In this document: one piece after another, positions 4,579 through 37,390 of the stretch
Layout: each line of letters opens with the position of its first letter
How positions within the stretch are numbered: position 1 is the stretch's first letter
Origin: Actinomycetes bacterium
Lineage (GTDB): Bacteria; Actinomycetota; Acidimicrobiia; Acidimicrobiales; RAAP-2
NCBI GenBank assembly: GCA_021786095.1
Contig: JAJYNX010000098.1
Span: forward strand, 448-64,447
Direction of reading: 5' to 3'
DNA: 64,000 nt
Translations under genes and position numbers: made by a program
The notes under the pieces: generated by a model
The model's database searches: none
What the model was told of the DNA's origin: nothing
Seen by the model: only the letters and a program-made list of their open reading frames with translations

Positions 4579-5523
4579 CTAGGCGTCGCGGTAGTGCTCG
4601 CGCCAGATCACCCGATACAGCCTCACCTTGCGCGGGATCGCCCGCAGCCCCGGGATGAGGGGTAGGAAGAAGAGCACCAGGGTGAGGAGGATCATGATGG
4701 CGAACACCTCGATGTCGCCGTTGCTCGACGAGTTCATCGGCGGCACCTGGTACCAGAAGGTGTAGAGCCACAGCCAGGGCTGGCCCGGGTAACTGCCCGT
4801 CTCGTTCATCATGCCCCACTGGTTGCCGAGCATGTGCTGCTTCTGGGCCAGGTCCCCCAGGTAGCTGCCGTCAGCGATGAAGAGCAGCGGCTTGGTGTAG
4901 TCCGTGGTGTAGAAGCCGTTGCCCGAGAGCAACGCGGTGTCGAGCGCTCCGGTGCGCGCCATGTGGGTCAGGTCGTTGATCATCACCGGCACCGGTCCGG
5001 CGTTGGCCGCGGGTACCACCACGTTGCCGTTGGTGAAGGTCATGTGGCCCGCGACCTTGGTGTAGTTGGCGACCCAGGTGGTCCGGGTGCTCGCCGAGGC
5101 CGTCTCCCACGCGGTGAGGCTGGACTTCAACGCCGGGTTGTTGGGCTGGGACTGCAGCGGATCGATCACGAAGTCGTCGGCCGAGTTGATCGGGATGCGC
5201 ACACCCACCCACCGGGCCAGGGCGAGCGGTCCGAGCTGCTGACCGGGACCGTTGTGGTTGTAGGGCGCCCCGTAGGAGGCCGAGATCGACGTGCCGTTGA
5301 GCTCGCTCAGCGCGGTCGTGGCGAAGTCGATCGGTGCGGCGTTGGACCACTTCTTGATCGTGATCGCCGGTTCGTCGGGGGACCCGAACACCACGGCCAG
5401 TAGCACCACCAGGATGCCCACCACCACGATGGCGATGGTGCCCTCCTTGATGATGTCGTAGGGGCTGTAGCCCCCCTTGTACACCGGGGCGTCGACGTCG
5501 GGCCGGAATTTCTTGGTGCTCAC
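4579..5523 (-). CDS. Cytochrome b subunit-IV-like membrane protein with a large extracytoplasmic insert
   Basis: GTG 5523 overlaps upstream stop; N-terminal PYDIIKE plus TM helix; C-terminal PGQPWLWLYTFWYQVPP then TM ending FFLPLIP resembles the PEWY/ef-loop region; no CxxCH. Confidence 0.6.
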   Translation of the reverse strand: MSTKKFRPDVDAPVYKGGYSPYDIIKEGTIAIVVVGILVVLLAVVFGSPDEPAITIKKWSNAAPIDFATTALSELNGTSISASYGAPYNHNGPGQQLGPLALARWVGVRIPINSADDFVIDPLQSQPNNPALKSSLTAWETASASTRTTWVANYTKVAGHMTFTNGNVVVPAANAGPVPVMINDLTHMARTGALDTALLSGNGFYTTDYTKPLLFIADGSYLGDLAQKQHMLGNQWGMMNETGSYPGQPWLWLYTFWYQVPPMNSSSNGDIEVFAIMILLTLVLFFLPLIPGLRAIPRKVRLYRVIWREHYRDA

Positions 5524-6167
5524 TTGGTCGCTCCTTCGGGGGTGGTGACTGCCGTGGCGTCGTCGTCGTACGGCGGGACGACGCCCTTCACGCGAACCAG
5601 GATCACGTGCAGGGCGGTCAGGACGATGGCCGCGAGCGGTAGCAGCACGATGTGCCACATCAGCATCTGGCCCATGTTGAGCACGTTGAAGTAGGCCCCG
5701 CCACCGGTGGCGTTGATACCGTCCTTCGCCTGGGTCGAGATCCACTGGGAGTCGAAGTTGCTCTGTGAGACGTAGCCGGTGAAGGCCGTCAGCAGCGAGG
5801 CGAGGAAGGTGACCACGCCAGTCATCCAGGTGGCCGTGCGCCCTCCGCGCCAGGCCCCCATGAAGAACTTGCCCCACAGGTGCACGACCATCGCGAAGAA
5901 GAAGACCTCCACGCTCCACAGGTGCAGTGAGTTGACGAAGTGGCCGATGAACGAGCCGTGCCACCAGGAGGGTCCACGTAGTGCGAGCAGGCAGCCGGTG
6001 ACGATGACCAGGATCAGCGACGAGAGGGTGGCCACGCCGAACACGTAGATCCACGACGACACGTAACTGGGCTGGGTGTCGGGCAGCAGCTTCTCGGGGG
6101 GCAGCTTGCCCGCGGCGCGGTGGCGCAGGCGGGTCGTCCACTGGCGCTCGATTTCGGTGGTGCTCAC
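5520..6167 (-). CDS. Cytochrome b N-terminal domain protein (cytochrome b6-sized, four TM helices)
   Basis: Four heme-ligand His (SLHLW/VVHLW and MWHIV/ALHVI), LTAFTGY, NFDSQW motifs. Confidence 0.88.
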   Translation of the reverse strand: MSTTEIERQWTTRLRHRAAGKLPPEKLLPDTQPSYVSSWIYVFGVATLSSLILVIVTGCLLALRGPSWWHGSFIGHFVNSLHLWSVEVFFFAMVVHLWGKFFMGAWRGGRTATWMTGVVTFLASLLTAFTGYVSQSNFDSQWISTQAKDGINATGGGAYFNVLNMGQMLMWHIVLLPLAAIVLTALHVILVRVKGVVPPYDDDATAVTTPEGATK

Positions 6168-6346
6168 CGGTTCTCCTTTCGGCGGTTGCGGCCCGGGAAG
6201 GGCAGCAGCAGGGCGGCCACGAAGGTGATCACCATCAGACAGATCACGATGAAGTTGGCGTAGCTGACGTACAGCCAGTGCCAGTGGATGAAGTGGCCGT
6301 AGTTATTGAGCGGCACCAGTGCCGCGAGAAACGTGTACAACCCCAT
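6164..6346 (-). CDS. Small His-containing single-TM protein
   Basis: 60 aa, GHFIHWHW then hydrophobic helix ending LPFP; translationally coupled to cytochrome b. Confidence 0.7.
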   Translation of the reverse strand: MGLYTFLAALVPLNNYGHFIHWHWLYVSYANFIVICLMVITFVAALLLPFPGRNRRKENR

Positions 6347-23142: not shown

Positions 23143-24582
23143 TCACGTCGTGCTGGGCACCCGAGTGGGCACGCCGGCTCCGTGGAGGGGCACGCGGGCG
23201 TCGATGGTCGTGCCGTGATCGGGTGTGGCCAGGATGTCGCAGCGCCCACCCAGCAGGTGAGCGCGTTCGCGCATGCTGTGGATGCCGAGGTGGCGTCCGT
23301 CGAGCGCTCCGACAGTGTGCGAGTCGAAGCCGCGCCCGTCGTCGGTCACGCGCACGTGCAGCGCGTCGCCCACGAAGTGCATCTCGACGGTCAGGAGGGT
23401 CGCGTCGGCGTGGCGCACGGTGTTGCGCACGGCCTCCTGGATGATGCGAAAGGCCCCAATCTCCGCCTCGGGGGTTCCGCGCACCACGTCGCCGTCGAGG
23501 AGGAAGCGGGTGGCCACCTCGTGCTGGATCTCGACGTCGACGAGCAGCCCCCGCACGGCGGCCACCAGTCCGTACTGGTCCAGGCCTGCGGGATGCAGTC
23601 CTCTCGTGACCTCGCGCAGGTGGCCCACCGTCTCGAGCAACTCTTCGCGCACGACGTCCCAGCGACCGTGGTCGCCGTTGGCGGGCGCGGCGTCACCGAG
23701 CGACTCGACGCGTCGCGCCAGCTGTAGGAGCCGTTGGAGGGGGTCGTCATGGATCTCGCGCGCGATGCGCCGCCGTTCCTCCTCCTGCGCTCGCAGCACC
23801 TCACCGGCCCAGGCCCGTGCCTCGATCTCCGAACGGTGCTCCTCGGTGATGTCCTCGAGGACGACCTGATGGGACGAGCCGTCGCCGACGGTGTCGAGAC
23901 TCGAGATCGACGGTCGGTAGGTGCGTTCGTCGCCGTTCGGGGTGATGATGGTGACGGTTCGCGGCGTCGTGGTCGCGGTGATGTCGTCGACGGAGAGCCC
24001 GAGCAGGTCGTGCAGGGTGGAGCCGCGGGTATCGCCCCACAGCGTCGCGGCGGCGGGGTTGACCTCGACGACCGCTCCGGAGGGATCCACGAGGACGATT
24101 GGTGACGCGTTGGTGGTGAAGAGCTGGCGATAGTGCCATTCGGCCGCGCGACGCTCGGCCTCGGCGGACTCGGCGCGGGCTCGCTCGAGGTGGGCTCGCT
24201 CGATCTCGAGGCCCACGAAGAGGGCCACGACCGCTACGACCGCGAGCTGGACGAGGTCCTGGTGGTAGTGGCCCTTGTCGTGGTCGAGCAGCAGGTCGGG
24301 CGTCCACAGCAGGATCGCCCAGAGAGTGGTCGCCGCGGAGCCCGACAATCCGTAGTAGAGCGCGGCGTATCCGACGGGGATGAGTAGGAGATCGATGGGG
24401 ATCCCGTAGGGGAAGTACCGGTTGTCCAGCCCGCCGTGCATGTCGATGCCGATGTGGATGAAGGCCCACAGCACCACCATGAGCTGCACCAGCCAGAAGG
24501 AGCGCTCGCGCAGCGGCGGATGCAGGGCACCCCTCAGGATCTGGCGCACGGGGATGCGCGGCGAGGCGGGGCGCAGCGTCAC
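23143..24582 (-). CDS. Membrane-bound PAS sensor histidine kinase (HisKA_3 type)
   Basis: Four N-terminal TM helices, PAS-like region, EEERRRIAREIHDD, RIIQEAVRNTVRHA, DDGRGF, HLGIHSMRERA. Confidence 0.92.
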   Translation of the reverse strand: MTLRPASPRIPVRQILRGALHPPLRERSFWLVQLMVVLWAFIHIGIDMHGGLDNRYFPYGIPIDLLLIPVGYAALYYGLSGSAATTLWAILLWTPDLLLDHDKGHYHQDLVQLAVVAVVALFVGLEIERAHLERARAESAEAERRAAEWHYRQLFTTNASPIVLVDPSGAVVEVNPAAATLWGDTRGSTLHDLLGLSVDDITATTTPRTVTIITPNGDERTYRPSISSLDTVGDGSSHQVVLEDITEEHRSEIEARAWAGEVLRAQEEERRRIAREIHDDPLQRLLQLARRVESLGDAAPANGDHGRWDVVREELLETVGHLREVTRGLHPAGLDQYGLVAAVRGLLVDVEIQHEVATRFLLDGDVVRGTPEAEIGAFRIIQEAVRNTVRHADATLLTVEMHFVGDALHVRVTDDGRGFDSHTVGALDGRHLGIHSMRERAHLLGGRCDILATPDHGTTIDARVPLHGAGVPTRVPSTT

Positions 24583-25250
24583 TTGGCCGAGTTGGGCGAG
24601 ATCAGGTGGTGCTCGAGCACGTACACGATCGCCTCGGAGCGCGAGCGTACCCCGAGCTTGGCCAGCACCGCCGAGACGTAGCTCTCCACCGTGCGCAGCC
24701 CGACGCCGAGATCACGGGCGATCTCCTTGTTCGAACGGCCGCGTACCAGGCCACGGATCACGTCGAACTCGCGAGCGGTGAGGGCGTCGGCGACGCGCTC
24801 CTCGGGCTGTCGGCGTCGGCCGGCGAGTCGGTGCGACAGCACGCCGTCGATGACCGTGCCACCGAGCGCGACCGTGCGCACCGCGGCGATGAACTCGTCG
24901 GTGCCGATGGTCTTGAGCAGGTACCCGTTGGCCCCCGCCGCGAGGGCCTCGGAGAAGTAGACGTAGTCGTCGTGGGCGGACAGCATCAGGCAGCGCACGG
25001 GCAGTCCGGTGCCGACGACGTGGCGCACCACGTCGACGCCGCTGCCGTCGGGCAGTTCGACGTCGATGACCATGAGGCGGGGCGTGAGTCGCTGGGCGAG
25101 GTCGATAGCGTCGGCGACGGACGAGACCTCGCCCACGACCTCGATGCCGTCCTCGCGCTCGAGCATCTGACGGGTGCCCTCGCGCACGACGGTGTGGTCG
25201 TCCACCACCACCACCGTTATCGTTTCCTCGCGCGAGCGTACGTCCGCCAC
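24579..25250 (-). CDS. NarL/LuxR-family response regulator
   Basis: VVDDHTVVREG, GANGYLLK, LTAREFDV...GRSNKEIA...KLGVRSR. Confidence 0.94.
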   Translation of the reverse strand: MADVRSREETITVVVVDDHTVVREGTRQMLEREDGIEVVGEVSSVADAIDLAQRLTPRLMVIDVELPDGSGVDVVRHVVGTGLPVRCLMLSAHDDYVYFSEALAAGANGYLLKTIGTDEFIAAVRTVALGGTVIDGVLSHRLAGRRRQPEERVADALTAREFDVIRGLVRGRSNKEIARDLGVGLRTVESYVSAVLAKLGVRSRSEAIVYVLEHHLISPNSAK

Positions 25251-25425
25251 GGCCTCAGGATAGGTCAGGAATTCGCCCGTGCGGCACGCTGGACGTCGCG
25301 TCCGTACCGTAGTTCCTCGGTAGTGGCGCCCCGTGGCATTTCTCTACCGGACCCGGCCCGCGCCGGGCAGGCTGTCTCACGGGCTGGGCCGTGTGCGGTC
25401 CCGGCGCTGAAGGGAGTCGCGGGGC

Positions 25426-25983
25426 ATGAGCAGTGAGTCGGTGGTGAGTGGGCGCCAGGATGGGATGAGCCATCGGCTGCGGGGCCTCGTCAATCTGGTG
25501 GTGGGAGCCGTGCTGGTCGTCGCGGTGGTCTTCGCTCTGACGGCCGGCGTCGGCGCAATCTGGTCGGCCGTGACGAGCTCGTCGAGCCCCGGCGCGAGCG
25601 CGGCGCCGGCGGGCGGCGCACCCGTCACCCCCGCAGCCGTGGCGCTCAAGATGACGATCGACGCCCCGCCGGTGGGTGGGGTCAAGGGATCCAACGGGAT
25701 GGTGGACGAGGCGTACACGCCCGGGACTCTCACGATGAGCGTCGGGACCACCTATGACGTCACGATCCTCAACTACTCGAAGGACGGGCACACGTGGACC
25801 CTTCCGGAGCTCAACGTGAACGCGGTGGTGCCAGTGGGCTCGAGCTCCTCACCGTCGGTGACCCACTTCACCGTGACGCCGAAGAAGGCGGGGACGTACC
25901 AGTGGTTCTGTGCGGTGCCGTGCGAGAAGTGGTCGATGGCCACCAACGGCTTCATGCGTGGCTACGTGGTGGTCAAGGCGTGA
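25426..25983 (+). CDS. Membrane-anchored cupredoxin-like protein 1
   Basis: N-terminal TM; GHTWT and GTYQWFCAVPCEKWSMATNGFMRGYV. Confidence 0.8.
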   Translation: MSSESVVSGRQDGMSHRLRGLVNLVVGAVLVVAVVFALTAGVGAIWSAVTSSSSPGASAAPAGGAPVTPAAVALKMTIDAPPVGGVKGSNGMVDEAYTPGTLTMSVGTTYDVTILNYSKDGHTWTLPELNVNAVVPVGSSSSPSVTHFTVTPKKAGTYQWFCAVPCEKWSMATNGFMRGYVVVKA

Positions 25984-26039
25984 GGTCTCGTACCGCGGGG
26001 GAGAGCCTCCCGGTCGGAGTAACCAAAGGAGATAATCAC

Positions 26040-26606
26040 ATGAAGAGCACACTGGCCAAGGTGGTGACGGTGGCCCTGGCGGCGGCTCCCGCGATGGCCC
26101 TCGGCCTCGCACCGAGCGGCGCCGGTGCCGCCGGGGCGGCCGGTCACGTGACCGAGTCGATGCGCCTGATCACTGGTCACATGGACGGAAAGTCGGGCTG
26201 GCCGAAGATCACCAACTCGTCGTGGACCGTCCACAAGGGTGAGACCGTCACCGTCAAGATCACGAGCTACGACGACGGCACGGCCCCGTTGACCGGCCAG
26301 TACATGAAGTACGACAAGGTGATGGGCGCGACCACCGGCAAGGAGACCGTCAACGGCAAGGGCGTGACGACGGTGTCGGACATCAACGTCGCCCACACCT
26401 TCACGGTGCCTGGTCTCGGGTTCAACATGCCGATCCCGGTGGCACCGACTGGCGGTCACGTCACCGTGGTCGCGACCTTCATCGCCAAGAAGACCGGTAC
26501 CTTCGTGTGGCACTGCTACGCCCCGTGCGGCTCGGGCGCGACGGGCATGGCCGGCGCCATGACGACGATGGGCTGGATGACTGGAAAGGTCACGGTCGTC
26601 CGATGA
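26040..26606 (+). CDS. Secreted cupredoxin-like protein 2
   Basis: RBS AAAGGAG; Sec signal peptide; AHTFT and GTFVWHCYAPCGSGATGMAGAMTTMGWMTG. Confidence 0.85.
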   Translation: MKSTLAKVVTVALAAAPAMALGLAPSGAGAAGAAGHVTESMRLITGHMDGKSGWPKITNSSWTVHKGETVTVKITSYDDGTAPLTGQYMKYDKVMGATTGKETVNGKGVTTVSDINVAHTFTVPGLGFNMPIPVAPTGGHVTVVATFIAKKTGTFVWHCYAPCGSGATGMAGAMTTMGWMTGKVTVVR

Positions 26607-27337
26607 GTGACGAGCGCTCTCGCGGATCGCGCGGCGACGCGCCAGGTGCCGGCGATCCGCTGGAGCGGCTCGGGCGGTGGGACCCCCTCGAGCGGCTCGG
26701 ACGGCTGAGTTGGCGCCGCCCCGCGCGCGTCGCGCGCCAGGGGGGAATCGTGGTGGGCTCCTTCGCGGGCATCCTGGTGGTTCTCGGAGTCACGGTGGCC
26801 CTCGTGGGTGGTATCGCCGCGGCGGTGACGACGCTCACCAAGCCCGCGGCTCCTCCGGCGCTGGTGCCGCACGGCCACGTGACCGAGGCGATGAGCATCG
26901 TCTCGGGAACCTCGGGTGCGACCAACGGCTGGCCCGAGTACACCCACGCCTCGTGGACCGTCCACAAGGGTGAGACCGTCACCGTCAAGATCACGAGTTT
27001 CGACGACGGCACGGCGCCCCTCGTGGGGTCGCAGATGATGTTCGCGCACGTGATGGGCTCGACGAACGGCCACGAGACCGTGGACGGGAGGTCGATCACG
27101 TCGGTGCCGGACGTCAACATCGCCCACACCTTCACGGTGCCCGCTCTCAACTTCAACATGCCGATCCCGGTGGCACCGACCAACGGTCACGTCACCGTGG
27201 TCGCGACGTTCGTCGCGGCCAAGGCGGGCACGTTCACGTGGCAGTGCTACGCGCCGTGCGGGAGCGGGACGAACTCGATGGGCGGGGCGATGGCGACGAT
27301 GGGCTGGATGGAAGGCACGATCAAGGTGACAGCGTGA
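26603..27337 (+). CDS. Membrane-anchored cupredoxin-like protein 3 (paralog of protein 2)
   Basis: TM anchor; AHTFT and GTFTWQCYAPCGSGTNSMGGAMATMGWMEG. Confidence 0.85.
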   Translation: MSDERSRGSRGDAPGAGDPLERLGRWDPLERLGRLSWRRPARVARQGGIVVGSFAGILVVLGVTVALVGGIAAAVTTLTKPAAPPALVPHGHVTEAMSIVSGTSGATNGWPEYTHASWTVHKGETVTVKITSFDDGTAPLVGSQMMFAHVMGSTNGHETVDGRSITSVPDVNIAHTFTVPALNFNMPIPVAPTNGHVTVVATFVAAKAGTFTWQCYAPCGSGTNSMGGAMATMGWMEGTIKVTA

Positions 27338-28200
27338 TGACGAAGAACAGAGAGATGGTGCCGGCGTCCCCGGCGGTTGACGACGAGCACGACGAACTGA
27401 CCGCGGCTGCGGTCACGATCGGTCGGCGCGGACTCCTTCGCGCGGCGGCGCTGGGCGGACTGGGGCTCACCGCGCTCGGTGCGCTCGGCGAGACGGTGGC
27501 CGCGGCGGCCGAGTCCTCGACGACGACGCCGTCGGGCCCGACCCACCAGTGGTGCATGATCATCGACCTGCGCCTGTGCAACGGCTGCAAGCTCTGCACG
27601 ACGGCCTGCCAGACGGCGCACTACCTGCACGAGGACCAGACGTGGATGAACGTCTACACGATGCAGAACGCGGCGGGCGAGGACTACTACATGCCGCGCC
27701 CCTGCATGATGTGCGAGGACCCGGCGTGCGTCCCGGTGTGCCCCGTGGGAGCCAACATCCGCACCGACGAGGGCCTCGTTCTGGTGGACCAGAGCCGCTG
27801 CATCGGTACGCGCATCTGCATGAACGCCTGCCCCTACGACGCTCGGTACTTCAACTGGGAGCAGCCCGTTCCCGCCCCGCGTCAGCCGTTCCCCCAAGAG
27901 CCCGAGTGGCCCGTTCCCCAAGTCAAGGGCACGGTCGGCAAGTGCATCGACTGCGCCGCGATGCTGCCCTCGGGCCAGCTCCCCGAGTGTGTCACCCACT
28001 GCCCCATGGGCGTGCTCTACTTCGGCGACCTCACGTCGGACGCGGCGGTCAATGGCATGGGAGCGACGGTGAAGGTGTCGACCTTCCTGGCGGAGAACGA
28101 CGCCGTCGTCTTCAAGGAGGAGTACGGCACTCACCCGCGGGTGTACTACATCCCGGGTCACGGACAGGATTTGGACAACAATGCCGCGGCGTCGTCGTGA
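27337..28200 (+). CDS. Tat-exported tetra-cluster Fe-S protein (NrfC/ActB2-like)
   Basis: RRGLLR Tat motif; CNGCKLCTTAC, CMMCEDPACVPVC, CIGTRICMNAC, KCIDC...PECVTHC. Confidence 0.92.
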   Translation: MTKNREMVPASPAVDDEHDELTAAAVTIGRRGLLRAAALGGLGLTALGALGETVAAAAESSTTTPSGPTHQWCMIIDLRLCNGCKLCTTACQTAHYLHEDQTWMNVYTMQNAAGEDYYMPRPCMMCEDPACVPVCPVGANIRTDEGLVLVDQSRCIGTRICMNACPYDARYFNWEQPVPAPRQPFPQEPEWPVPQVKGTVGKCIDCAAMLPSGQLPECVTHCPMGVLYFGDLTSDAAVNGMGATVKVSTFLAENDAVVFKEEYGTHPRVYYIPGHGQDLDNNAAASS

Positions 28201-28221
28201 TGCGGGGGCGGAGGTAAGCGA

Positions 28222-29631
28222 ATGAGCAGCAACCTACTGGAGACCGAGCGAGTCGAACGGCCCGCCGATGCGCACGCGCGCGAGGACGTGCGCCACGCGG
28301 CGATGCGGCCCGTGCTCGAGACGCCGCGGTGGTGGTGGCCGGCCGTGCTGGTGCTGGGTGCCGTCGTCGTCCTGGGCATCGTCGCGTGGATGGTTCAGGT
28401 CGCCGACGGCCTGGGCACCGCCGGCTACAGCGACGGAGCCTTCTGGGCCATCTACGAGGCGAACCTCGTGGCCTTCATCGGCGTCAGCTACGGCGGCGCC
28501 GTGGTGTCGGCGATCCTGCGTTTGACCCACGCTGGCTGGCGGGCCCCCCTGACGCGGATCGCCGAGGCCACGGCCCTCGTGACCCTGCCCATCGGGATGC
28601 TCTTCATCATTCCCCACCTGGGCAGCCCCCAGAAGATCTGGGAACTGGTCTGGCCGCCGTACTGGAACCTGTCGTCGCCGATCCTCTGGGACTTCTTCGC
28701 GGTCAGCACGTATCTGCTCGCGACCATCGTGTTCTTCTATCTGCCGCTCGTCCCCGACGCCGCCATCGTGCTCGACCGCCTTGGTGACGCGCCGGCCAAT
28801 CGCCGCGTTCGCGTGCGGCGCACGCTGTACCGCGCGCTCCTGGGCCGCTTCGGGGGCACGCCGCGCGAACGGGCCGCGCTCAACGGGTCGATCGGCCTGG
28901 TCGCCATCATGATCATCCCCATGGCGGTCTCGGTCCACTCGGTGCTGTCCTTCGCGTTCTCGTCGTCGTCGCGACCCGGCTACATGGAGACGATCTTCCC
29001 GGTCTACTTCGTCGTCGCGGCGCTCTACTCGGGAGTCGCGCTGGTGGTGCTGGTGATCGCCGCGAGCCGGCGTCTCTTCCACCTCGAGGCGTTCATCGTG
29101 CCGCGCCACTTCGTGCGCCTGGGCTTCGTGATGATCGCCTTCGGTGCGGCGTACCTGTACCTCACCTTCACCGAGTACCTGGTCGACGGCTACTCGGGGA
29201 CCACCGGTGCGGCCGCCTGGGTGTACCAGGACATCGCTGGTCGCTACTGGATCCCCTTCTGGTTCTACTTCGTCGCGGCTGGCGTGGTGCCCCTGGTCAT
29301 CATGGCCGTGCGGCGCTTTCGCACGACGTCGGGGGTGGTGGTCGCCTCGACGCTCGTGGTGCTGGCCCTGTGGGTCAAGCGTCTCGTGATCGTGATCCCC
29401 CCGGCGACGGAGCCGCTCGTGCAGTCGCCGCTGGCCAAGGGTGGCGTACTCGCCGGCAACTGGGGTAGCTACCACTTCACCTGGGTGCCGATCTCGATCA
29501 CGGTGGCGGCCACCGCCGCGATACCGCTGCTGTTGCTGATCGTGTTCCGCTTCGTGCCCATCCTGCCGATGGCCGAGATGGAGGAGATGGACGACGAGCT
29601 CGTTGGCGCGTCGTCGAGGGAGGTGGCGTGA
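28222..29631 (+). CDS. NrfD/PsrC-family quinone-interacting membrane subunit (ActC-like)
   Basis: VSAILRL...WRAPLTRIAEA, PHLGSP, NLSSPILWDFFAVSTY, VSVHSVLSF, RFVPILP; about ten TM helices. Confidence 0.92.
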   Translation: MSSNLLETERVERPADAHAREDVRHAAMRPVLETPRWWWPAVLVLGAVVVLGIVAWMVQVADGLGTAGYSDGAFWAIYEANLVAFIGVSYGGAVVSAILRLTHAGWRAPLTRIAEATALVTLPIGMLFIIPHLGSPQKIWELVWPPYWNLSSPILWDFFAVSTYLLATIVFFYLPLVPDAAIVLDRLGDAPANRRVRVRRTLYRALLGRFGGTPRERAALNGSIGLVAIMIIPMAVSVHSVLSFAFSSSSRPGYMETIFPVYFVVAALYSGVALVVLVIAASRRLFHLEAFIVPRHFVRLGFVMIAFGAAYLYLTFTEYLVDGYSGTTGAAAWVYQDIAGRYWIPFWFYFVAAGVVPLVIMAVRRFRTTSGVVVASTLVVLALWVKRLVIVIPPATEPLVQSPLAKGGVLAGNWGSYHFTWVPISITVAATAAIPLLLLIVFRFVPILPMAEMEEMDDELVGASSREVA

Positions 29632-30176
29632 TGGCGCGGACGACGGGTCGTGGTGTGCGACGGGTGGGGGCCGCGTTCGGCGGCGCCCTGATCCTGGTCG
29701 CGGTGGCGTTCGCGCTGCCGGCGGCGGCGTCGGGCCCGAGCGTGGCGTTGCGGGCCTCGACCCCGTCGGGCGGTGGCGTGGCGCTGACGGCGCAGGTGGC
29801 GTCGGTCGACGCACCGGTGACGGTCGACTACTACGTGCACCTCGAGGAGTTCTCGGGCGCGCCCCTGCTGCTGATCGGCTCGTCGACGACCAACGCCGCG
29901 GGAGTGGCGACCGACGTCTACCAGCCGACGTGGTCGGGGCCGCAGAACTTCGTCGCCACGGTCGTCGCACCGAGCGGGACGGTTCTGGCTACTACGAGCC
30001 TGACGGTCCAGGCCGCGAAGACCGACCCCTTCGCGGGCAGCGTCCAGAGCCTGCGACCCGACGGCCTCATCGGCCGCTGGGTCGTGGTCGCCCTGCTGGC
30101 CCTGCTGTTGGCCATGTGGATCACGCTGCTGGCGGTGATCGTGCGCGTCCAGCAGGGTCCTCGCGTCGTGCGGTGA
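29628..30176 (+). CDS. Exported beta-rich protein with C-terminal membrane anchor
   Basis: N-terminal signal, Ig-like beta pattern, C-terminal TM; coupled to the nrfD-like gene. Confidence 0.7.
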   Translation: MMARTTGRGVRRVGAAFGGALILVAVAFALPAAASGPSVALRASTPSGGGVALTAQVASVDAPVTVDYYVHLEEFSGAPLLLIGSSTTNAAGVATDVYQPTWSGPQNFVATVVAPSGTVLATTSLTVQAAKTDPFAGSVQSLRPDGLIGRWVVVALLALLLAMWITLLAVIVRVQQGPRVVR

Positions 30177-30180
30177 CCTG

Positions 30181-31866
30181 ATGGCGGGCGTCGCGGGACT
30201 GTCGGTGACGAACCACACGGTCGTCGGGGCGTTCGATCACGAGCTGGTGATCCAGGCCGGGGTGATCGCGTCCCTCGCGATCATCGCGTGTCTCGTGGCC
30301 GTCGCGGTGGCCGGTCGCGGCGCGTCCAACGAGGACAGCGGGGATAGTGGGGCAGAGCCCGTCGCTCGGCGAGTCGTGCGCGTGGGCTTCGGCCTCGTCT
30401 GGCTTGTTGACGGCATCCTCCAGGCCCAGTCGGCGATGCCCCTGGGCATGATTCCCCAGGTGGTGCAGCCGGCGTCGTCGTCGTCGCCGAGCTGGGTGCA
30501 GCACCTGGTCAACGTCACCGCGACGATGTGGACCCTGCATCCCGTGAGTGTGCCCGCCTCGGCCGTGTGGATCCAGATTGGACTGGGAGTCTGGCTTCTG
30601 GGCGCCCGTCGGGGGGAGTGGTCGCGGATGGCGGGCTGGACCAGTCTGGCCTGGGGCCTCTTCGTGTGGGTGTTCGGTGAGGCCTTTGGTGGCCTCTTCG
30701 CGCCGGGCTTGTCCTGGTTGACGGGGGCGCCGGGGGGCGTCCTCTTCTACTGCGCGGCGGGCGTGCTGGTCGCACTGCCGGAGCGTCACTGGGAGTCGGC
30801 CCGCCTGGGTCGTGTCGTGCTGGCGACGCTCGGCGGCTTCTTCATGGTGATGGCCGCCCTACAGGCGTGGCCGGGTCGGGGCTACTGGCGCGGGGCGGGC
30901 ACGCACGGGCCGGGCACGCTGCTCGGCGCGGTTCAGGCCATGACGACCACCCCCCAGCCCTCCGCGCTGCGCTCGCTGGTCACGGGCTTCGCCGCGGTGG
31001 ACAGCGCGCACGGCTGGGCCGTGAACCTGGTCGTTGTCGTGGCACTCGGGGTGATCGGGGCGTTGCTCGTGCGTGCGCGGCCGTCGTGGTTGCGCGTGGT
31101 GGTGGTGGCTGGCGTCCTCCTGTGCCTGGCGGACTGGGTCCTGGTCCAGGACATGGGGTTCTGGGGCGGGGTCGGCACCGACCCCAACAGCATGATTCCG
31201 ACGGCCCTGTTGCTCGTCACCGGGTACCTCGCGGTGTCGAGCGTGCCCGCGACGCGACCGGCCGTGGTGCCTCAACGTCGCGTGGCCCGGGGCGCGCGCG
31301 TGTCGTGGGCGGCGTCGCTGGTCGCCCTGATCATGCTGGTCGTGGGCGTGGTCCCCGCGCTCGCGGCGGCGGCCGATCCCCGAGCGAGCACCATCCTCGC
31401 CCGCGCGGAGGGTGCCACCGTCGCCGCGCTCGACGCCCCGTCGCCGTGGCCGGGCTGGTCGGGTGCGACGGGGCCTTCGGGCTCGGAACCGACGGTGGTG
31501 ACGTTCCTCGGGAGCTGCGACGCCCGCAGTGACCTCGCCACGCTGCGCGCGGCCCAGCGTGATCTCATGGCGTCGGGCGACGCGATGAGTGTCACGGTGG
31601 CGACCGCCTGCGCGGCGCCGCAGGCGCCGGCGCGCTGGCGGGTGGCTCGACTGACGCCGGTCGAGCTGCGGCGCTGGCGCGCGGCCTTCGGACAGCTGAG
31701 TGGCCTCACGTCACGCCCGCGGGGTGATGTCTACTACGTGCTCGCTCCCGACGGCCAGGTATGCGACGCGCTCGTGACCGGCGCGGCGCCGGTCGGTGGT
31801 CCACTGGTCTCGTCGAACGCGGTGGAGCTCGCCGGGGTCGTGCGTCGTGTGGCGCTCGGCCTCTAG
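30181..31866 (+). CDS. Polytopic membrane protein (two DoxX-like repeats) fused to a degenerate SCO/thioredoxin-like domain
   Basis: GFGLVWLVDGILQAQ...VWVFGEAFGG and ...DWVLVQDMGFWGG repeats; C-terminal PTVVTFLGSC...YYVLAPDG without an intact CxxxC. Confidence 0.6.
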   Translation: MAGVAGLSVTNHTVVGAFDHELVIQAGVIASLAIIACLVAVAVAGRGASNEDSGDSGAEPVARRVVRVGFGLVWLVDGILQAQSAMPLGMIPQVVQPASSSSPSWVQHLVNVTATMWTLHPVSVPASAVWIQIGLGVWLLGARRGEWSRMAGWTSLAWGLFVWVFGEAFGGLFAPGLSWLTGAPGGVLFYCAAGVLVALPERHWESARLGRVVLATLGGFFMVMAALQAWPGRGYWRGAGTHGPGTLLGAVQAMTTTPQPSALRSLVTGFAAVDSAHGWAVNLVVVVALGVIGALLVRARPSWLRVVVVAGVLLCLADWVLVQDMGFWGGVGTDPNSMIPTALLLVTGYLAVSSVPATRPAVVPQRRVARGARVSWAASLVALIMLVVGVVPALAAAADPRASTILARAEGATVAALDAPSPWPGWSGATGPSGSEPTVVTFLGSCDARSDLATLRAAQRDLMASGDAMSVTVATACAAPQAPARWRVARLTPVELRRWRAAFGQLSGLTSRPRGDVYYVLAPDGQVCDALVTGAAPVGGPLVSSNAVELAGVVRRVALGL

Positions 31867-33401: not shown

Positions 33402-33823
33402 GTCGCCTCGACGAGCTCGCGGAGTCGGTGCAGCGCGTCGCCGGCCGCGCCGGCGATCACCAGCGCCAGCGTGGCGGGATTGGCGTCTACGCCGTAGACG
33501 GCCAGGCACGTCCCGTCGTCGAGGTCGATGACGTCGATGGTGGACAGGTGCTCGTGGAACAGCGCGGTGGTGATCCGGTACTGGAAGCGTCGGGCCAGCG
33601 GATCGTTGGTGACGATCTCCTCGGGCATCGCCACACCCGACTCGGTGACCACGGTGCGCGTCGCTCCCGTCACGCGGCACTCGGCGATGCCCGTGAACCA
33701 CTCGGCCAGTCGCGTCGGGTCGCCCACGTAGGGCCAGACGACCTCGGCGGGTCGACGGATCCGTACGTGGCGTCGCACACTGGCGCGGGTGCGGTGCACG
33801 GCCTCACCGACGCGGTCCTCCAC
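33398..33823 (-). CDS. SRPBCC (polyketide cyclase-like) domain protein
   Basis: PAEVVWPYVGDPTRLAEWF, RRFQYRI; coupled to the sulfatase. Confidence 0.8.
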   Translation of the reverse strand: MEDRVGEAVHRTRASVRRHVRIRRPAEVVWPYVGDPTRLAEWFTGIAECRVTGATRTVVTESGVAMPEEIVTNDPLARRFQYRITTALFHEHLSTIDVIDLDDGTCLAVYGVDANPATLALVIAGAAGDALHRLRELVEAT

Positions 33824-33982
33824 GGGCGAAGCGTAGAGGTCGCCCCGGGCGCTGTCAACGACGTGCCACGAGCTCGGCCACCGCGTGGGCCGCGCGGGCT
33901 CGCGGGTTACGCTCGAGGTGGTGCTCCGATCGGTGGCGCGCCACGGTCGAGGGAGGCCACGTGGTCAATGGGGACCTGGCGC

Positions 33983-36900
33983 ATGGCTGAGGCCACTGAC
34001 CCTTCGCTCGACGATCTGGTGACGGGGGCGAGCGAGCGAGCCCGGCGACTCATCGCCGAGGCCGAGCGTCACCGCACCCGCCACGAGCGCGCGGTGCGTC
34101 GTCAATTCGTCGGGCTCTTCCGCGACCCCGCGGCCCTGGGCGTGACGATCGCGATGACCGATGAGGTGATGCGCTGCGCGTCGCGCGAGGGGGCGACGCG
34201 AATCCTGCGCCGCACGGCGCCGCACGCGACCGTGGCCGGCTTCGGCGTGCTCAATGCCCTCGGCCTGCGACTGATGGCGGCCGCGTCGCGCGTGGCCCCG
34301 GCGCTCGTCGTGCGGATCGTGCACTGGCGCGTGCGCCGACTGTCGGGCGACCTGATCCTGGACGCGGCGCCCGCGGCGTTCTCGCGCCACGCGCGCCGCC
34401 GACGCGAGCAGGGCCTCGCGCTCAACGTCAACGTGCTGGGCGAGGCGGTCCTCGGGGAGCACGAGGCCGCGCAGCGACTCGCGCGGGTGGTGGCGATGAT
34501 CCGCCGCGACGACGTGAGCTACGTCTCGGTCAAGCTCTCGGCGCTGGTCAGCCAGATCGTGGCGATCGACCACGCGGGCTCGCGCGAGCGGGTCGCGCAG
34601 CGTCTGCGCACCCTTTTCCGCGAGGCCAACGCGCACGCGACGTTCGTCAACCTCGACATGGAGGAGTACCGCGACCTGCGCCTCACCGTCGACGGGTTCA
34701 TCGAGGTCCTCTCCGAGCCCGAGTTCGCCACCACCTACGCCGGCATCGTGCTGCAGGCCTACCTGCCCGACTCGCACGCCGCGCTCGAGGAGTTGCTCGC
34801 CTGGGCCCTGGACCGCCGTGCGGCCGGCGGGGCGCCGATCAAGGTGCGCCTGGTCAAGGGCGCCAACCTGGCCATGGAGCACGCCGAGGCCGAGCTGCAC
34901 GGCTGGGTCGCCGCCCCCTACGACACCAAGGCCGACGTCGACGCCAGCTACGCGCGCCTGATCGACCGCGCGCTGCGCGTCGAGCACGCCGGGGCCCTGC
35001 GAGTGGGGGTGGCCAGCCACAACCTGTTCGCCGTCGCCTGGGCCCTCGAGGTGGCGGCGGCCCGCGGCGTGGGCGATCAGCTGGACATCGAGATGCTCGA
35101 GGGCATGGCGCCCGCCGAGGCGCGCGCCCTGGTGAGCGAGGGGCGCACCGTGCTCCTCTACGCGCCGGTCACGCGCGTCGACGACTTCGCCGCCGCCGTG
35201 GCCTACCTGGTGCGGCGCCTCGACGAGAACACCGCACCCGAGAACTACCTGCGCGCGGCCTTCGCGATCGCGAGCGACCCGGCGACCTTCGAGGAGCAGC
35301 GCCGCCGTTTCGTGGTCTCCGTCGCGGCGCGCCACGCGTTGGTCACCGACCGGCGGCGCCGTGCTCGCGCCGCGACCGCGGGCTTCGCCAACGCGCCCGA
35401 CGGCGACCCCACCGACCTCGCCTACGTGGCGGCGCTCGCGTCGTCGTGCGAGGGGCTCGCCGCTCGCGGCGACCGGGCGCAGCTCGTCGAGGTCGGTGAG
35501 GACGTGGCCGACGCGCCGGCGTCGGCGCTCGAGGTCGGCACCGACCCCAACGACGCGGGAGCGGGCTGGTACCGCTACCGGGTCGCGGACCGCGACCGGA
35601 TCGACGAGGTCGTGGCGCGCGCGCGCGCCGCCGCGCCGGCGTGGGCCGCCCGCTCGGCGAGCGAGCGTGGCGCGATCCTCGCACGGGTGGCGGCGGTGAT
35701 GGAGGCGCACCGCGCCGCCACGATCGCGGTCATGGCGCGCGACACGGGCAAGACGGTGGCCGAGGGGGACCCCGAGGTCAGCGAGGCGATCGACTTCGCG
35801 CGCTACTACGCCACGCTCGGCGAGGGCCGGGAGGGAGTGGGTCTGGAGGGATCGACCCCGCTCGGGGTGGTCCTCGTCGTGCCGCCGTGGAACTTCCCCT
35901 ACTCCATTCCCGCCGGTGGGGTCACCGCGGCTCTCGCGGCGGGCAACGCGGTGCTGCTCAAGCCCGCGCCCGAGGCGGTGGCGGTGGGCTGGGAGCTGGC
36001 CCAGCACCTCTGGGAGGGGGGCGTGCCGCGCGACGTGGTGCAGTTCGTGCCCACGCGCGACGACGAGCACGGGCGCCACCTGGTCACCCACGACGGCGTC
36101 GACGCGGTGGTGCTGACCGGCTCGTTCGACACCGCGCGCCTGTTCACCTCCTGGAAGCCGTCGATGACCCTGCTCGCCGAGACCAGCGGCAAGAACGCCC
36201 TCGTGGTGACGGCGTCGGCCGACGTCGACCTGGCGGTGAAGGACCTGGTGCACTCGGCGTTCGCCAACGCCGGCCAGAAGTGCAGCGCGGCGAGCCTGGC
36301 CATCGTGGACCGCGCCACCTACGACAACCCGCTCTTCGTGCGTCAGCTGGTCGACGCGGTGACCAGCCTCGCGGTCGGCGCAGCGCTGGAGTGGGCGAGC
36401 GAGGTGGGGCCGGTGATCCGCCCGCCCGAGACTGCCCTACGCCGGGCCCTGACCCAGCTCGACCCCGGCGAGTCGTGGCTGGTCGAGCCCGCACCCCTGG
36501 ACGAGACCGGTCACCTCTGGCGCCCGGGGGTGAAGGTCGGCGTGGCGCCAGGGTCGTGGAGCCACCGTCACGAGTGGTTCGGCCCGGTGCTCGGCGTCAT
36601 GGTGGCCCCGGACCTGGCGACGGCCATCGAGTGGCAGAACGCGGTCGACTACGGACTCACGGCCGGCATCCACAGCCTGGACGAGGCCGAGTGCGCGACG
36701 TGGCTCGAGCGCGTCGAGGCGGGCAACCTCTACGTGAACCGGGCGATCACCGGGGCGGTGGTGCGTCGTCAGCCCTTCGGTGGCTGGAAGCGCTCCAGCG
36801 TCGGACCCGGCGCCAAGGCCGGTGGGGTCAACTACGTCGCCGCCCTGCGTCGCTGGCCCGAGGTCGACGACGTCGTGGCGGCCCGCGACGACCTACGACG

Positions 36901-37390
36901 CTGGTGGGACGAGCGCGCGAGCCGGGCGATCGACGAGTCGGGACTCGCCGTCGAGAGCAATCACGTGCGCTACCGCCGCGCCCGCCAGCCGATCCTCGTG
37001 CGCGTCGACGAGCGCGTCGACGCGCCGCGCGTGGGCTACGTGCGCGCCCTCGCGTCGATCACCGGGGCCCGGATCCAGTTCAGCGCCGCGCGCGTGGTTC
37101 CCGGCGTCGACGGCGTGATCGTCGAGTCGCTCGACGAGCTAGTCGCACGCGCCGCGACGGTCGCGCGAGTGCGTTGGTGGAGCGAGGAGACGCCCCCGGT
37201 GACGGAGCTGCTCGATCAGGGCCGCACGACGGACCGACGCCCGCTGAGCGGCGTGGGCGCCGTCGAGGGGCCGCGCTGGCTGCTCGAGCAGAGCGTGGCG
37301 ATCACCAACCACCGCTACGGCAACGTGAACGCAGGCCCCAAGCCCGCGGTGGTGGGCCTCGGCACGACGGCGAACTCGCGGGGCGGGTGA
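33983..37390 (+). CDS. putA: Bifunctional proline dehydrogenase / P5C dehydrogenase
   Basis: NVNVLGEAVLG, NLDMEEYRD, VRLVKGANL, YLVRRLDENT, EAIDFARYY, ETSGKN, AGQKCSAAS. Confidence 0.93.
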   Translation: MAEATDPSLDDLVTGASERARRLIAEAERHRTRHERAVRRQFVGLFRDPAALGVTIAMTDEVMRCASREGATRILRRTAPHATVAGFGVLNALGLRLMAAASRVAPALVVRIVHWRVRRLSGDLILDAAPAAFSRHARRRREQGLALNVNVLGEAVLGEHEAAQRLARVVAMIRRDDVSYVSVKLSALVSQIVAIDHAGSRERVAQRLRTLFREANAHATFVNLDMEEYRDLRLTVDGFIEVLSEPEFATTYAGIVLQAYLPDSHAALEELLAWALDRRAAGGAPIKVRLVKGANLAMEHAEAELHGWVAAPYDTKADVDASYARLIDRALRVEHAGALRVGVASHNLFAVAWALEVAAARGVGDQLDIEMLEGMAPAEARALVSEGRTVLLYAPVTRVDDFAAAVAYLVRRLDENTAPENYLRAAFAIASDPATFEEQRRRFVVSVAARHALVTDRRRRARAATAGFANAPDGDPTDLAYVAALASSCEGLAARGDRAQLVEVGEDVADAPASALEVGTDPNDAGAGWYRYRVADRDRIDEVVARARAAAPAWAARSASERGAILARVAAVMEAHRAATIAVMARDTGKTVAEGDPEVSEAIDFARYYATLGEGREGVGLEGSTPLGVVLVVPPWNFPYSIPAGGVTAALAAGNAVLLKPAPEAVAVGWELAQHLWEGGVPRDVVQFVPTRDDEHGRHLVTHDGVDAVVLTGSFDTARLFTSWKPSMTLLAETSGKNALVVTASADVDLAVKDLVHSAFANAGQKCSAASLAIVDRATYDNPLFVRQLVDAVTSLAVGAALEWASEVGPVIRPPETALRRALTQLDPGESWLVEPAPLDETGHLWRPGVKVGVAPGSWSHRHEWFGPVLGVMVAPDLATAIEWQNAVDYGLTAGIHSLDEAECATWLERVEAGNLYVNRAITGAVVRRQPFGGWKRSSVGPGAKAGGVNYVAALRRWPEVDDVVAARDDLRRWWDERASRAIDESGLAVESNHVRYRRARQPILVRVDERVDAPRVGYVRALASITGARIQFSAARVVPGVDGVIVESLDELVARAATVARVRWWSEETPPVTELLDQGRTTDRRPLSGVGAVEGPRWLLEQSVAITNHRYGNVNAGPKPAVVGLGTTANSRGG

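Follow-up and report, generated by a model that had tools for sequence, protein, structure and literature searches.

A 64,000-nucleotide stretch of contig JAJYNX010000098.1 (hereafter the window, by which all positions are numbered), from the genome of an uncultured Acidimicrobiia bacterium (G+C 70 %, 2.10 Mb, 96 % complete), carries at 25426-31866 of the + strand seven co-oriented, overlapping or tightly packed open reading frames that, on balance, probably encode a haem-free menaquinol:cupredoxin oxidoreductase related to alternative complex III (ACIII) and acting as an accessory respiratory branch. In order, the genes specify three cupredoxin-like proteins (cup1, cup2 and cup3), an iron–sulfur subunit (FeS), an NrfD-type membrane subunit (NrfD) and two further membrane-associated proteins (g6 and g7). 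Their G+C content at third codon positions (0.87-0.93) is typical of true genes in a genome of 70 % G+C, so that we regard all seven as real. An earlier note on this DNA had described the locus as a haem-c-free, ACIII-like quinol module wired to cupredoxins, and this is the description that our analysis supports best, through the close relationship of NrfD to ActC, the CxGTRxC motif of FeS and the conserved cupredoxin neighbours. Most of the parts list in that note also stood up: the reading frames lie on the + strand where it had placed them; three exported cupredoxin-like proteins, an iron–sulfur subunit with a twin-arginine translocation (Tat) leader, an ActC/NrfD-type subunit and an anchored beta protein can each be recognized on the evidence given below; a motif scan found no CxxCH in any of the seven proteins; and a search with PF00384 found no molybdopterin gene inside or near the cluster.

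The membrane subunit NrfD (28222-29631, +), for which ten helices and quinol binding are predicted, matches PF03916 with an E value of 6e-25 and a score of 88.9 bits against a gathering cut-off of 25.8, and aligns end to end with ActC of the ACIII structure 6F0K (E 7e-44 as a single sequence, 3e-68 with a family profile). When solved structures were searched with the NrfD sequence and profile, the match to ActF was weak and PsrC was not detected; by these searches ActC, matched over its full length, is by far the closest solved relative. The functional residues of ActC (PMC8076601, Table 2) were mapped onto NrfD through the alignment and checked in 77 family members. Three residues of the ActC quinol site, H139, S164 and D169, correspond to invariant H132, S152 and D157 here. 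Seven of the 13 residues of the N-side half-channel are identical and invariant, S180 is replaced by an invariant Thr, and one further Asp matches in the NrfD of the window and is not conserved in the family, while in the P-side half-channel Y270, E326 and the gate residue R395 (here R387) are kept. NrfD is possibly an ion-translocating subunit.

The adjoining FeS (27337-28200, +; 287 aa) is an NrfC-like or ActB-ferredoxin-like protein with a match to Pfam Fer4_11 and a twin-arginine leader that is kept in 74 sequences, and is predicted to be exported by the Tat route. Its 16 Cys residues fall in four motifs and would suit four clusters, of which three would be [4Fe-4S] and one, assigned to the third motif, CIGTRIC, would be [3Fe-4S]. 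This motif aligns with RCIGTRYC in the Rhodothermus ActB (6F0K_B) and with RCVGTKYC in another ACIII (8K9E_B); PsrB has CIACGAC and ArrB has CIGCKKC at the same position. In ACIII, a signature of the CxGTRxC type belongs to the [3Fe-4S] cluster that faces the quinol site (PMC8076601, Table 1). FeS aligns only to residues 796-958 of the 1039 aa of ActB and has no counterpart of the B1 domain.

Upstream of FeS lie the genes of the three putative copper proteins. The first, cup1 (25426-25983, +), has an N-terminal membrane helix and matches Pfam Cupredoxin_1 (E 1e-7); cup2 (26040-26606, +) has a signal peptide and a cupredoxin domain on a CuA scaffold; and cup3 (26603-27337, +), a paralogue 66 % identical to cup2 within the domain, has a cytoplasmic tail and an N-terminal membrane anchor. 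In Pfam and NCBIfam, cup2 and cup3 gave weak, sub-threshold matches solely to the CuA part of CoxB/NosZ. We aligned 117 distinct cup2/cup3-type domains from related loci and found His86-Thr, Asn96, Cys126-x2-Pro-Cys130-Gly, Gly139, Met141, Met147 and Gly149 to be invariant (numbering of the last 155 residues of cup2). The candidate ligands are accordingly H119, C159-x3-C163, M174 and M180 in cup2 and H175, C215-x3-C219, M230 and M236 in cup3. The same pattern, H ... CxxPC ... M-x5-M-x-G, is present with a shorter loop in cup1 (H122-T-W ... C162-AVP-C166 ... M171-x5-M177-x-G) and is kept across 28 orthologues of that protein.

A family-profile search of the PDB returned CuA domains as the best matches (Thermus ba3 subunit II and NosZ; E ~1e-4), and the profile alignment placed the first His and both Cys on CuA ligands and the second CuA His on a non-ligand residue. 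That position is never His in 37 aligned representatives, the first His being the only one that is invariant in the 117 domains. Thus, of the CuA ligand set H ... C-x3-C-x3-H-x2-M, the first His, the C-x3-C pair and one Met align and the second His is missing, and the score against Pfam COX2 is 14 bits for a cut-off of 22. Nor do the proteins resemble type-1 blue copper proteins: none of cup1, cup2 and cup3 has the His after the Cys that would serve as a type-1 ligand, and cup1 scores 13.8 bits against PF00127, for which the cut-off is 21.2. The AlphaFold model of cup2 shows a confident cupredoxin fold (pLDDT 94), matched by Foldseek with a probability of 1.0 to the NosZ CuA domain, laccase, AcoP and nitrite reductase. 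The predicted copper site is therefore neither canonical CuA nor type-1, and the residues shared by cup1 to cup3 make a CuA-derived site of one His, two Cys and two Met the most likely arrangement.

In a library of 1.84 billion representative proteins this cupredoxin family comprises, at E <= 1e-10, 400 clusters at 50 % identity. Most contain proteins of 170-260 aa that stand alone, a few contain tandem two-domain forms, and the motif is kept in distant members. Homologues are publicly named 'hypothetical' or 'cupredoxin domain-containing', with a Pfam domain recorded for only one of those listed. Three distant members of the family, from low-G+C organisms (P0371, P0382 and P0409), are tandem two-domain forms of ~400-420 aa with the motif in each domain, and in three others (P0454, P0469 and P0507) two cup1-type domains occur in what looks like a lipoprotein.

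The association of these genes is conserved. Scanning one genome per species with NrfD gave 279 relatives; the best 80 of these are all from Acidimicrobiia or Actinomycetota genomes, the cluster arrangement recurs in these 80 species-level genomes, and its recurrence is far beyond chance. Neighbours were counted in the 53 species-level loci that have full flanks. The FeS gene lies directly upstream of NrfD in all 53, and g6 lies downstream of it in 49; a g7-type membrane protein is present in 33, and a response regulator, matched beside a kinase, is found within 8 kb in 40. The earlier note had suggested looking for cupredoxin neighbours of NrfD homologues, and this search was rewarded: 52 of the 53 loci have at least one cupredoxin gene in the cluster, and the last has one ~6 kb away. 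The minimal version of the cluster reads cup-FeS-(g7N)-NrfD-g6, and the version in the window, with three cupredoxins, is among the richer ones. The module is an accessory trait of the order: 31 of 301 genomes have it (a count that includes two hits to the distant sister variant described below), as do 22 of 185 genera and, in the genus from which the window comes, two genomes of six. Members of the cupredoxin family occurred in each of 25 tested genomes with a close NrfD, in none of ten tested genomes of other families of the order without NrfD, and in four of five close relatives (same genus or family) without NrfD. Among the homologues listed, Ferrimicrobium is the sole cultured organism, the others being metagenome-assembled genomes; the NrfD of Ferrimicrobium acidiphilum YE2023 is 74 % identical to that of the window and belongs to a five-gene version of the module, which fits the guess in the earlier note that the system would be relevant to acidophilic Actinobacteria.

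A sister operon in the same order (L092:6312-10840 and L093:1-4200, from genomes G040 and G091) bears on the role of the cupredoxins. Its NrfD is 34-37 % identical to that of the window, and its genes encode, in order, an EB_dh-type haem-binding protein, FeS, NrfD and a protein with an Ig-like domain, a membrane anchor and a fused cytochrome c, so that haem proteins occupy the slots held here by the cupredoxins and g6. The presence of haem proteins in the cupredoxin slot supports the idea that the cupredoxins are the redox output of the module. The third motif of the sister FeS is all-Cys (CIGCRMC), an indication that the [3Fe-4S] motif is an innovation of the copper-linked lineage and not an inheritance from ACIII. 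A direct comparison of g6 with the Ig-cytochrome c protein was not significant, and the parallel between them is one of architecture only. The sister operon looks like a further uncharacterized NrfD-type complex.

The last two genes of the operon encode probable accessory components. The protein g6 (29628-30176, +) has a signal sequence, an Ig-like beta domain and a C-terminal membrane anchor, with no conserved Cys, His or Met; weak Big_1 matches were obtained for 21 of 29 family members. NrfD and g6 form one polypeptide in some relatives, including a natural fusion in P0100 (hhalign probability 98 %), on the strength of which we argue that g6 is a physical subunit of the complex, probably with a structural function. 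The gene g7 (30181-31866, +) encodes a polytopic membrane domain (approximately residues 55-350) followed by an SCO-like C-terminus. Its homologues number more than 4600, mostly of ~610 aa with a C-terminal SCO1/SenC domain (PF02630). The g7 of the window has no PF02630 match, and the region still aligns to the SCO domain of P0133, with the CxxxC and the His replaced; with these residues lost, g7 cannot be cited as a working copper chaperone. The part conserved in this type of cluster is the membrane half; many loci have it without SCO, and in 12 of the 53, that of Ferrimicrobium included, its gene stands between those of FeS and NrfD. Pfam DoxX did not match this domain, and a PDB sequence search with the protein returned matches to the SCO part only. 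The structural model (pLDDT 87.5) has NACHO/TMEM35A, a DoxX-family protein, as its top Foldseek match, with a probability of 0.99 but an E value of 0.4 and half of the domain covered. Of the DoxX-like/SCO-like fusion described in the earlier note, then, the SCO-like half holds in degenerate form, and the DoxX likeness comes down to a marginal match of fold. In two related genomes (L005:1180-2127 and L061:1749-2651) the matched part of the g7-like gene upstream of the cluster contains an in-frame stop near codon 292, and the gene could be either a pseudogene or a shorter one with its natural end there.

Since NrfC/NrfD pairs are known with many partners, we also considered that FeS and NrfD might work with a molybdenum enzyme, a hydrogenase or a cytochrome encoded elsewhere, the cupredoxin genes being mere neighbours. 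The public names of NrfD homologues, 'molybdoenzyme membrane anchor' or 'HybB-like', point this way, as do the best NCBIfam matches, DsrO for FeS (164 bits against a cut-off of 200) and DsrP for NrfD (72 bits against 350), although all such scores lie below their cut-offs. The remainder of the genome offers little to such a reading. By tblastn it has one NrfD and one NrfC-like gene, so that no second NrfD-like subunit equivalent to ActF was found. There are nine CxxCH proteins, of which QcrC is the only one with two haems; none has three or more, and neither an ActA (five haems) nor an ActE (one haem) was recognized. Two proteins have molybdopterin domains, NuoG and an FdhA-like protein beside FdhD, MoeA, MoaC and MoaA, and no exported or periplasmic-looking molybdenum partner is evident; hydrogenase genes were not searched for. 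With no multihaem cytochrome and no exported molybdenum enzyme, a partner of the ActA/ActE or molybdenum type elsewhere in the genome is unlikely, and such a partner was rejected after this inventory. FeS moreover has its own Tat leader, as in subunits of the NrfC/DsrO type that are not exported alongside a molybdenum protein, and the adjacency to cupredoxin genes is all but universal among the loci counted. Taken together, these observations leave the mere-neighbour explanation highly improbable. A nos-type module was ruled out as well, for want of NosZ in the genome, where the NosZ model matches only the CuA domain of CtaC, at 25.8 bits against a cut-off of 625.

The same inventory disposes of one of the roles suggested in the earlier note, the replacement of complex III, as a canonical ctaE-qcrCAB locus with dihaem QcrC is present in the genome together with CtaCD. 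The presence of QcrCAB makes the module an additional branch. Separate from this canonical locus, which lies on contig C14, the window has at 4579-6346 (-) a gene for a b6-sized cytochrome b (PF13631/PF00033), followed by one for a 314-aa protein without a Pfam match. The genome has two A-type oxidases, the usual CtaCD and a second one encoded by an operon on contig C43 (C43:18301-25939). First in the latter is a g7 paralogue whose SCO domain is intact (CWTDC); then come a cupredoxin, a COX2 with canonical CuA, COX1, COX3 and CtaG. The cupredoxin of this operon belongs to the same family as those of the window (229 aa; HTF ... CFVPCG ... M-x5-M-GG).

Our current working hypothesis is that the ActC-like NrfD would oxidize menaquinol at an outward-facing site, and that the electrons would enter the Tat-exported FeS through a [3Fe-4S] cluster adjoining the quinol site, pass along three [4Fe-4S] clusters and finally reach at least one of the outer-face cupredoxins, of which cup1 and cup3 would be tethered to the membrane and cup2 soluble. 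The g6 protein and the DoxX-like membrane domain of g7 would be structural or accessory subunits. The reduced cupredoxins would most likely feed an A-type haem-copper oxidase; as final acceptor, either of the two oxidases of the genome is a candidate, and so, in acidophiles, is soluble Fe(III). Electrons would thus have a branch independent of cytochrome c and parallel to the bcc-aa3 route, with the neighbouring two-component system as its switch. The formation of a complex, the binding of copper, the direction of electron flow, the final acceptor and any coupling to ion translocation are what we infer from the findings set out above. By analogy, quinol oxidation is the more likely direction, because the combination of a [3Fe-4S] cluster with an ActC-type subunit is known from a quinol-oxidizing complex and because a copper protein can accept electrons from menaquinol in a downhill step. 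An electron passing from Fe(II) to menaquinone would, on our estimate, have to climb roughly 0.7-0.8 V, a steep span; with menaquinone, reverse flow from Fe(II) or sulfur is energetically hard.

Several observations weigh against a menaquinol:cupredoxin oxidoreductase and have to be set beside those in its favour. In NrfD, the quinol-site residue D253 of ActC is replaced by an invariant Ala, and the residue that matches E394 of ActC is Lys. The [3Fe-4S] signature of FeS may be convergent with that of ActB and not inherited, given that the nearest sister NrfC is all-Cys. The putative copper site is without the second CuA His, so that its metal content and potential are not predictable; the CxxxC pair of the cupredoxins could also be a disulfide. 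The SCO domain of g7 is degenerate. Finally, an oxidase-linked cupredoxin like that of contig C43 is present in only five of the 25 genomes with a close NrfD, and in one genome without the module, and since this is a minority of carriers the link to an oxidase is not general.

The organization of the locus is that of a single unit with a probable regulator of its own. The gap between cup1 and cup2 is 56 nt and contains the ribosome-binding site AAAGGAG; cup2 and cup3 overlap by 4 nt (ATGA), which indicates that they are translationally coupled; cup3 and FeS overlap by 1 nt (TGATG); FeS and NrfD are 21 nt apart; NrfD and g6 overlap by 4 nt (GTGA); and g6 and g7 are separated by 4 nt. The regulator genes diverge from the operon on its upstream side and a convergent sulfatase gene is the next one downstream of g7, so that the seven genes form one unit. 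Our promoter scan gave no match to the sigma-70 consensus, which is poorly informative at 70 % G+C, and the terminator scan gave three weak terminator-like sites, all intragenic, for 1.6 expected by chance. Upstream, a sensor histidine kinase (23143-24582, -; a membrane N-terminus, PAS, HisKA_3 and HATPase_c by Pfam) and a response regulator of the NarL/LuxR type (24579-25250, -; Response_reg and GerE) are encoded by genes overlapping by 4 nt, and the divergent intergenic region of 175 nt (25251-25425) is, by position only, the presumed promoter/operator. The N-terminal domain of the kinase is polytopic. Its best NCBIfam matches are MctS and then UhpB, NarX and NarQ, those of the regulator being MctR and then NarL and UhpA, all below cut-off. 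This pair is the probable dedicated regulator of the operon. Further downstream in the window, a 1320-aa open reading frame at 33428-37390 (+), judged from its sequence, has the look of a fused proline dehydrogenase/aldehyde dehydrogenase (PutA-like); its start overlaps the convergent upstream gene, and the annotated start is probably too far upstream.

A two-component system dedicated to the operon would also suit a function outside respiration, in which the cupredoxin-like proteins handle copper or thiols and disulfides, the CxxxC pair being a chaperone site or a redox disulfide, and NrfC/NrfD gives electrons to, or takes them from, periplasmic copper/thiol homeostasis. The non-canonical site, with no second His, a Cys pair and several Met, is of a kind seen in Cu(I)-handling proteins, and most g7 homologues carry a fused domain of SCO, which acts as a copper chaperone or thiol reductase. 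However, the regulator is of the NarL type and not of the CopRS/CusRS type, and the genes of copper resistance (CopA, CopZ, CsoR and a multicopper oxidase) are not conserved neighbours of the module. A quinol site of the ActC kind and a wire of four clusters are features that typify respiratory complexes, one cupredoxin of the family is encoded near the start of a haem-copper oxidase operon, flanked by the SCO-fusion gene and COX2, and haem proteins hold the equivalent positions in the sister variant. We therefore consider a role in homeostasis unlikely.

A somewhat stronger contender, if still a doubtful one, concerns the electron acceptor. On this view, the module would connect iron respiration with the quinone pool in acidophilic Acidimicrobiia, and Met-rich surface cupredoxins would exchange electrons with soluble Fe(III)/Fe(II). 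In anaerobic Fe(III) respiration the complex would be a menaquinol:Fe(III) oxidoreductase; in Fe(II) oxidation the cupredoxins would pass electrons to an oxidase, an uphill branch to quinone being minor at most. Ferrimicrobium acidiphilum, as noted, has the five-gene version; cultured acidophilic Acidimicrobiia oxidize Fe(II) and reduce Fe(III) (PMC8790237); and spectra of iron-reduced Ferrimicrobium and Acidimicrobium show a-type cytochromes only, with neither c-type cytochromes nor visible blue copper (PMC5143472), a result with which a weakly coloured copper carrier would be compatible. The genome studied here is very poor in c-type cytochromes, the distribution of the module is patchy and accessory, and AcoP, from the iron-oxidation operon of Acidithiobacillus, is among the structural neighbours of cup2. 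Yet both published studies are compatible with a link to iron and do not show one, and nearly all carriers are known from metagenome-assembled genomes alone. The uphill span from Fe(II) to menaquinone estimated above also counts against this link, as does the fact that the cupredoxins are the only outward-reaching conduit of the module. The fullest form of the idea, an energy-conserving, haem-free, menaquinol-oxidizing complex of Gram-positive acidophilic iron bacteria (Ferrimicrobium and its kin) that would be their long-sought membrane connection from quinone pool to soluble iron and would exchange electrons with Fe(III)/Fe(II) through a new, CuA-derived His-Cys2-Met2 copper centre on stand-alone cupredoxins, seems to us tentative to the same degree.

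Returning to the menaquinol:cupredoxin oxidoreductase that we favour, the module is real, conserved and undescribed in the searchable literature, full-text searches having found no published account of an NrfD-cupredoxin module or of its link to iron oxidation in Acidimicrobiia. A survey of NrfD complexes lists partners with haem, molybdenum, nickel-iron or iron–sulfur cofactors and never mentions copper (PMC8076601). If our reading is right, an ACIII-type quinol site joined directly to copper proteins would be a new architecture for a respiratory chain, the cupredoxins would represent a new family of copper sites (~400 clusters at 50 % identity, with no Pfam model), and there would be a testable candidate for the poorly defined electron route of the acidophilic iron-metabolizing Actinobacteria used in biomining. 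Ferrimicrobium acidiphilum, which is culturable and has the minimal five-gene version, makes the question directly testable.

Comparison with characterized systems places the module closest to ACIII, the structures of which include 6F0K (Rhodothermus marinus), 6BTM (Flavobacterium johnsoniae), 6LOD and 8K9E. Common to both are a ten-helix ActC-type subunit in which the His, Ser and Asp of the quinol site and the gate Arg are kept, an exported four-cluster iron–sulfur module with the CxGTRxC [3Fe-4S] motif and, presumably, electron flow from quinol to a high-potential periplasmic carrier; the ACIII of Chloroflexi probably reduces a cupredoxin, auracyanin. Unlike ACIII, however, the module has no ActA (pentahaem), ActE (monohaem), ActF (the second NrfD-like subunit) or ActD, its NrfD has Ala for D253 of ActC, its FeS lacks the Mo-enzyme-like B1 domain of ActB (287 aa against about 1000), and it has operon-encoded cupredoxins in place of cytochromes together with extra Ig-like and DoxX-like subunits. 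It thus resembles the ActB2-ActC core and lacks four of the features that define ACIII, namely ActA, ActE, ActF and the B1 domain.

The cupredoxins themselves are best compared with the CuA domains of cytochrome oxidase subunit II and nitrous-oxide reductase (2CUA and 1FWX), with which they share the fold, a Met after the loop and the best matches of both sequence and structure. The first His and the Cys-x3-Cys-Gly loop align with the CuA ligands H114, C149 and C153 of Thermus ba3, in which the second His, missing here, is H157. They differ from CuA domains in their two further invariant Met residues (M-x5-M-x-G) and in being free-standing proteins of ~150 aa that are joined neither to a membrane oxidase nor to a NosZ propeller. 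The pairing of a Tat-exported NrfC-type ferredoxin with an NrfD-type membrane protein is shared with NosGH of clade II nos clusters, NrfCD, DsrOP and PsrBC, and the role ascribed to NosGH is to pass electrons on towards a CuA centre. Unlike NrfCD and DsrOP, the cluster contains no DsrMKJ, NrfAB or molybdenum subunit, and its equivalog scores are far below cut-off. Lastly, the cupredoxin inside the haem-copper oxidase operon of contig C43 recalls AcoP and rusticyanin of the Acidithiobacillus ferrooxidans rus operon, but the metal-site ligands are different and no Cyc1, Cyc2 or other cytochrome c accompanies it. The envelope here is of the Gram-positive type, and the link of the NrfCD/ACIII type, through which the cupredoxins would receive their electrons from the quinol pool, has no counterpart in the rus system.

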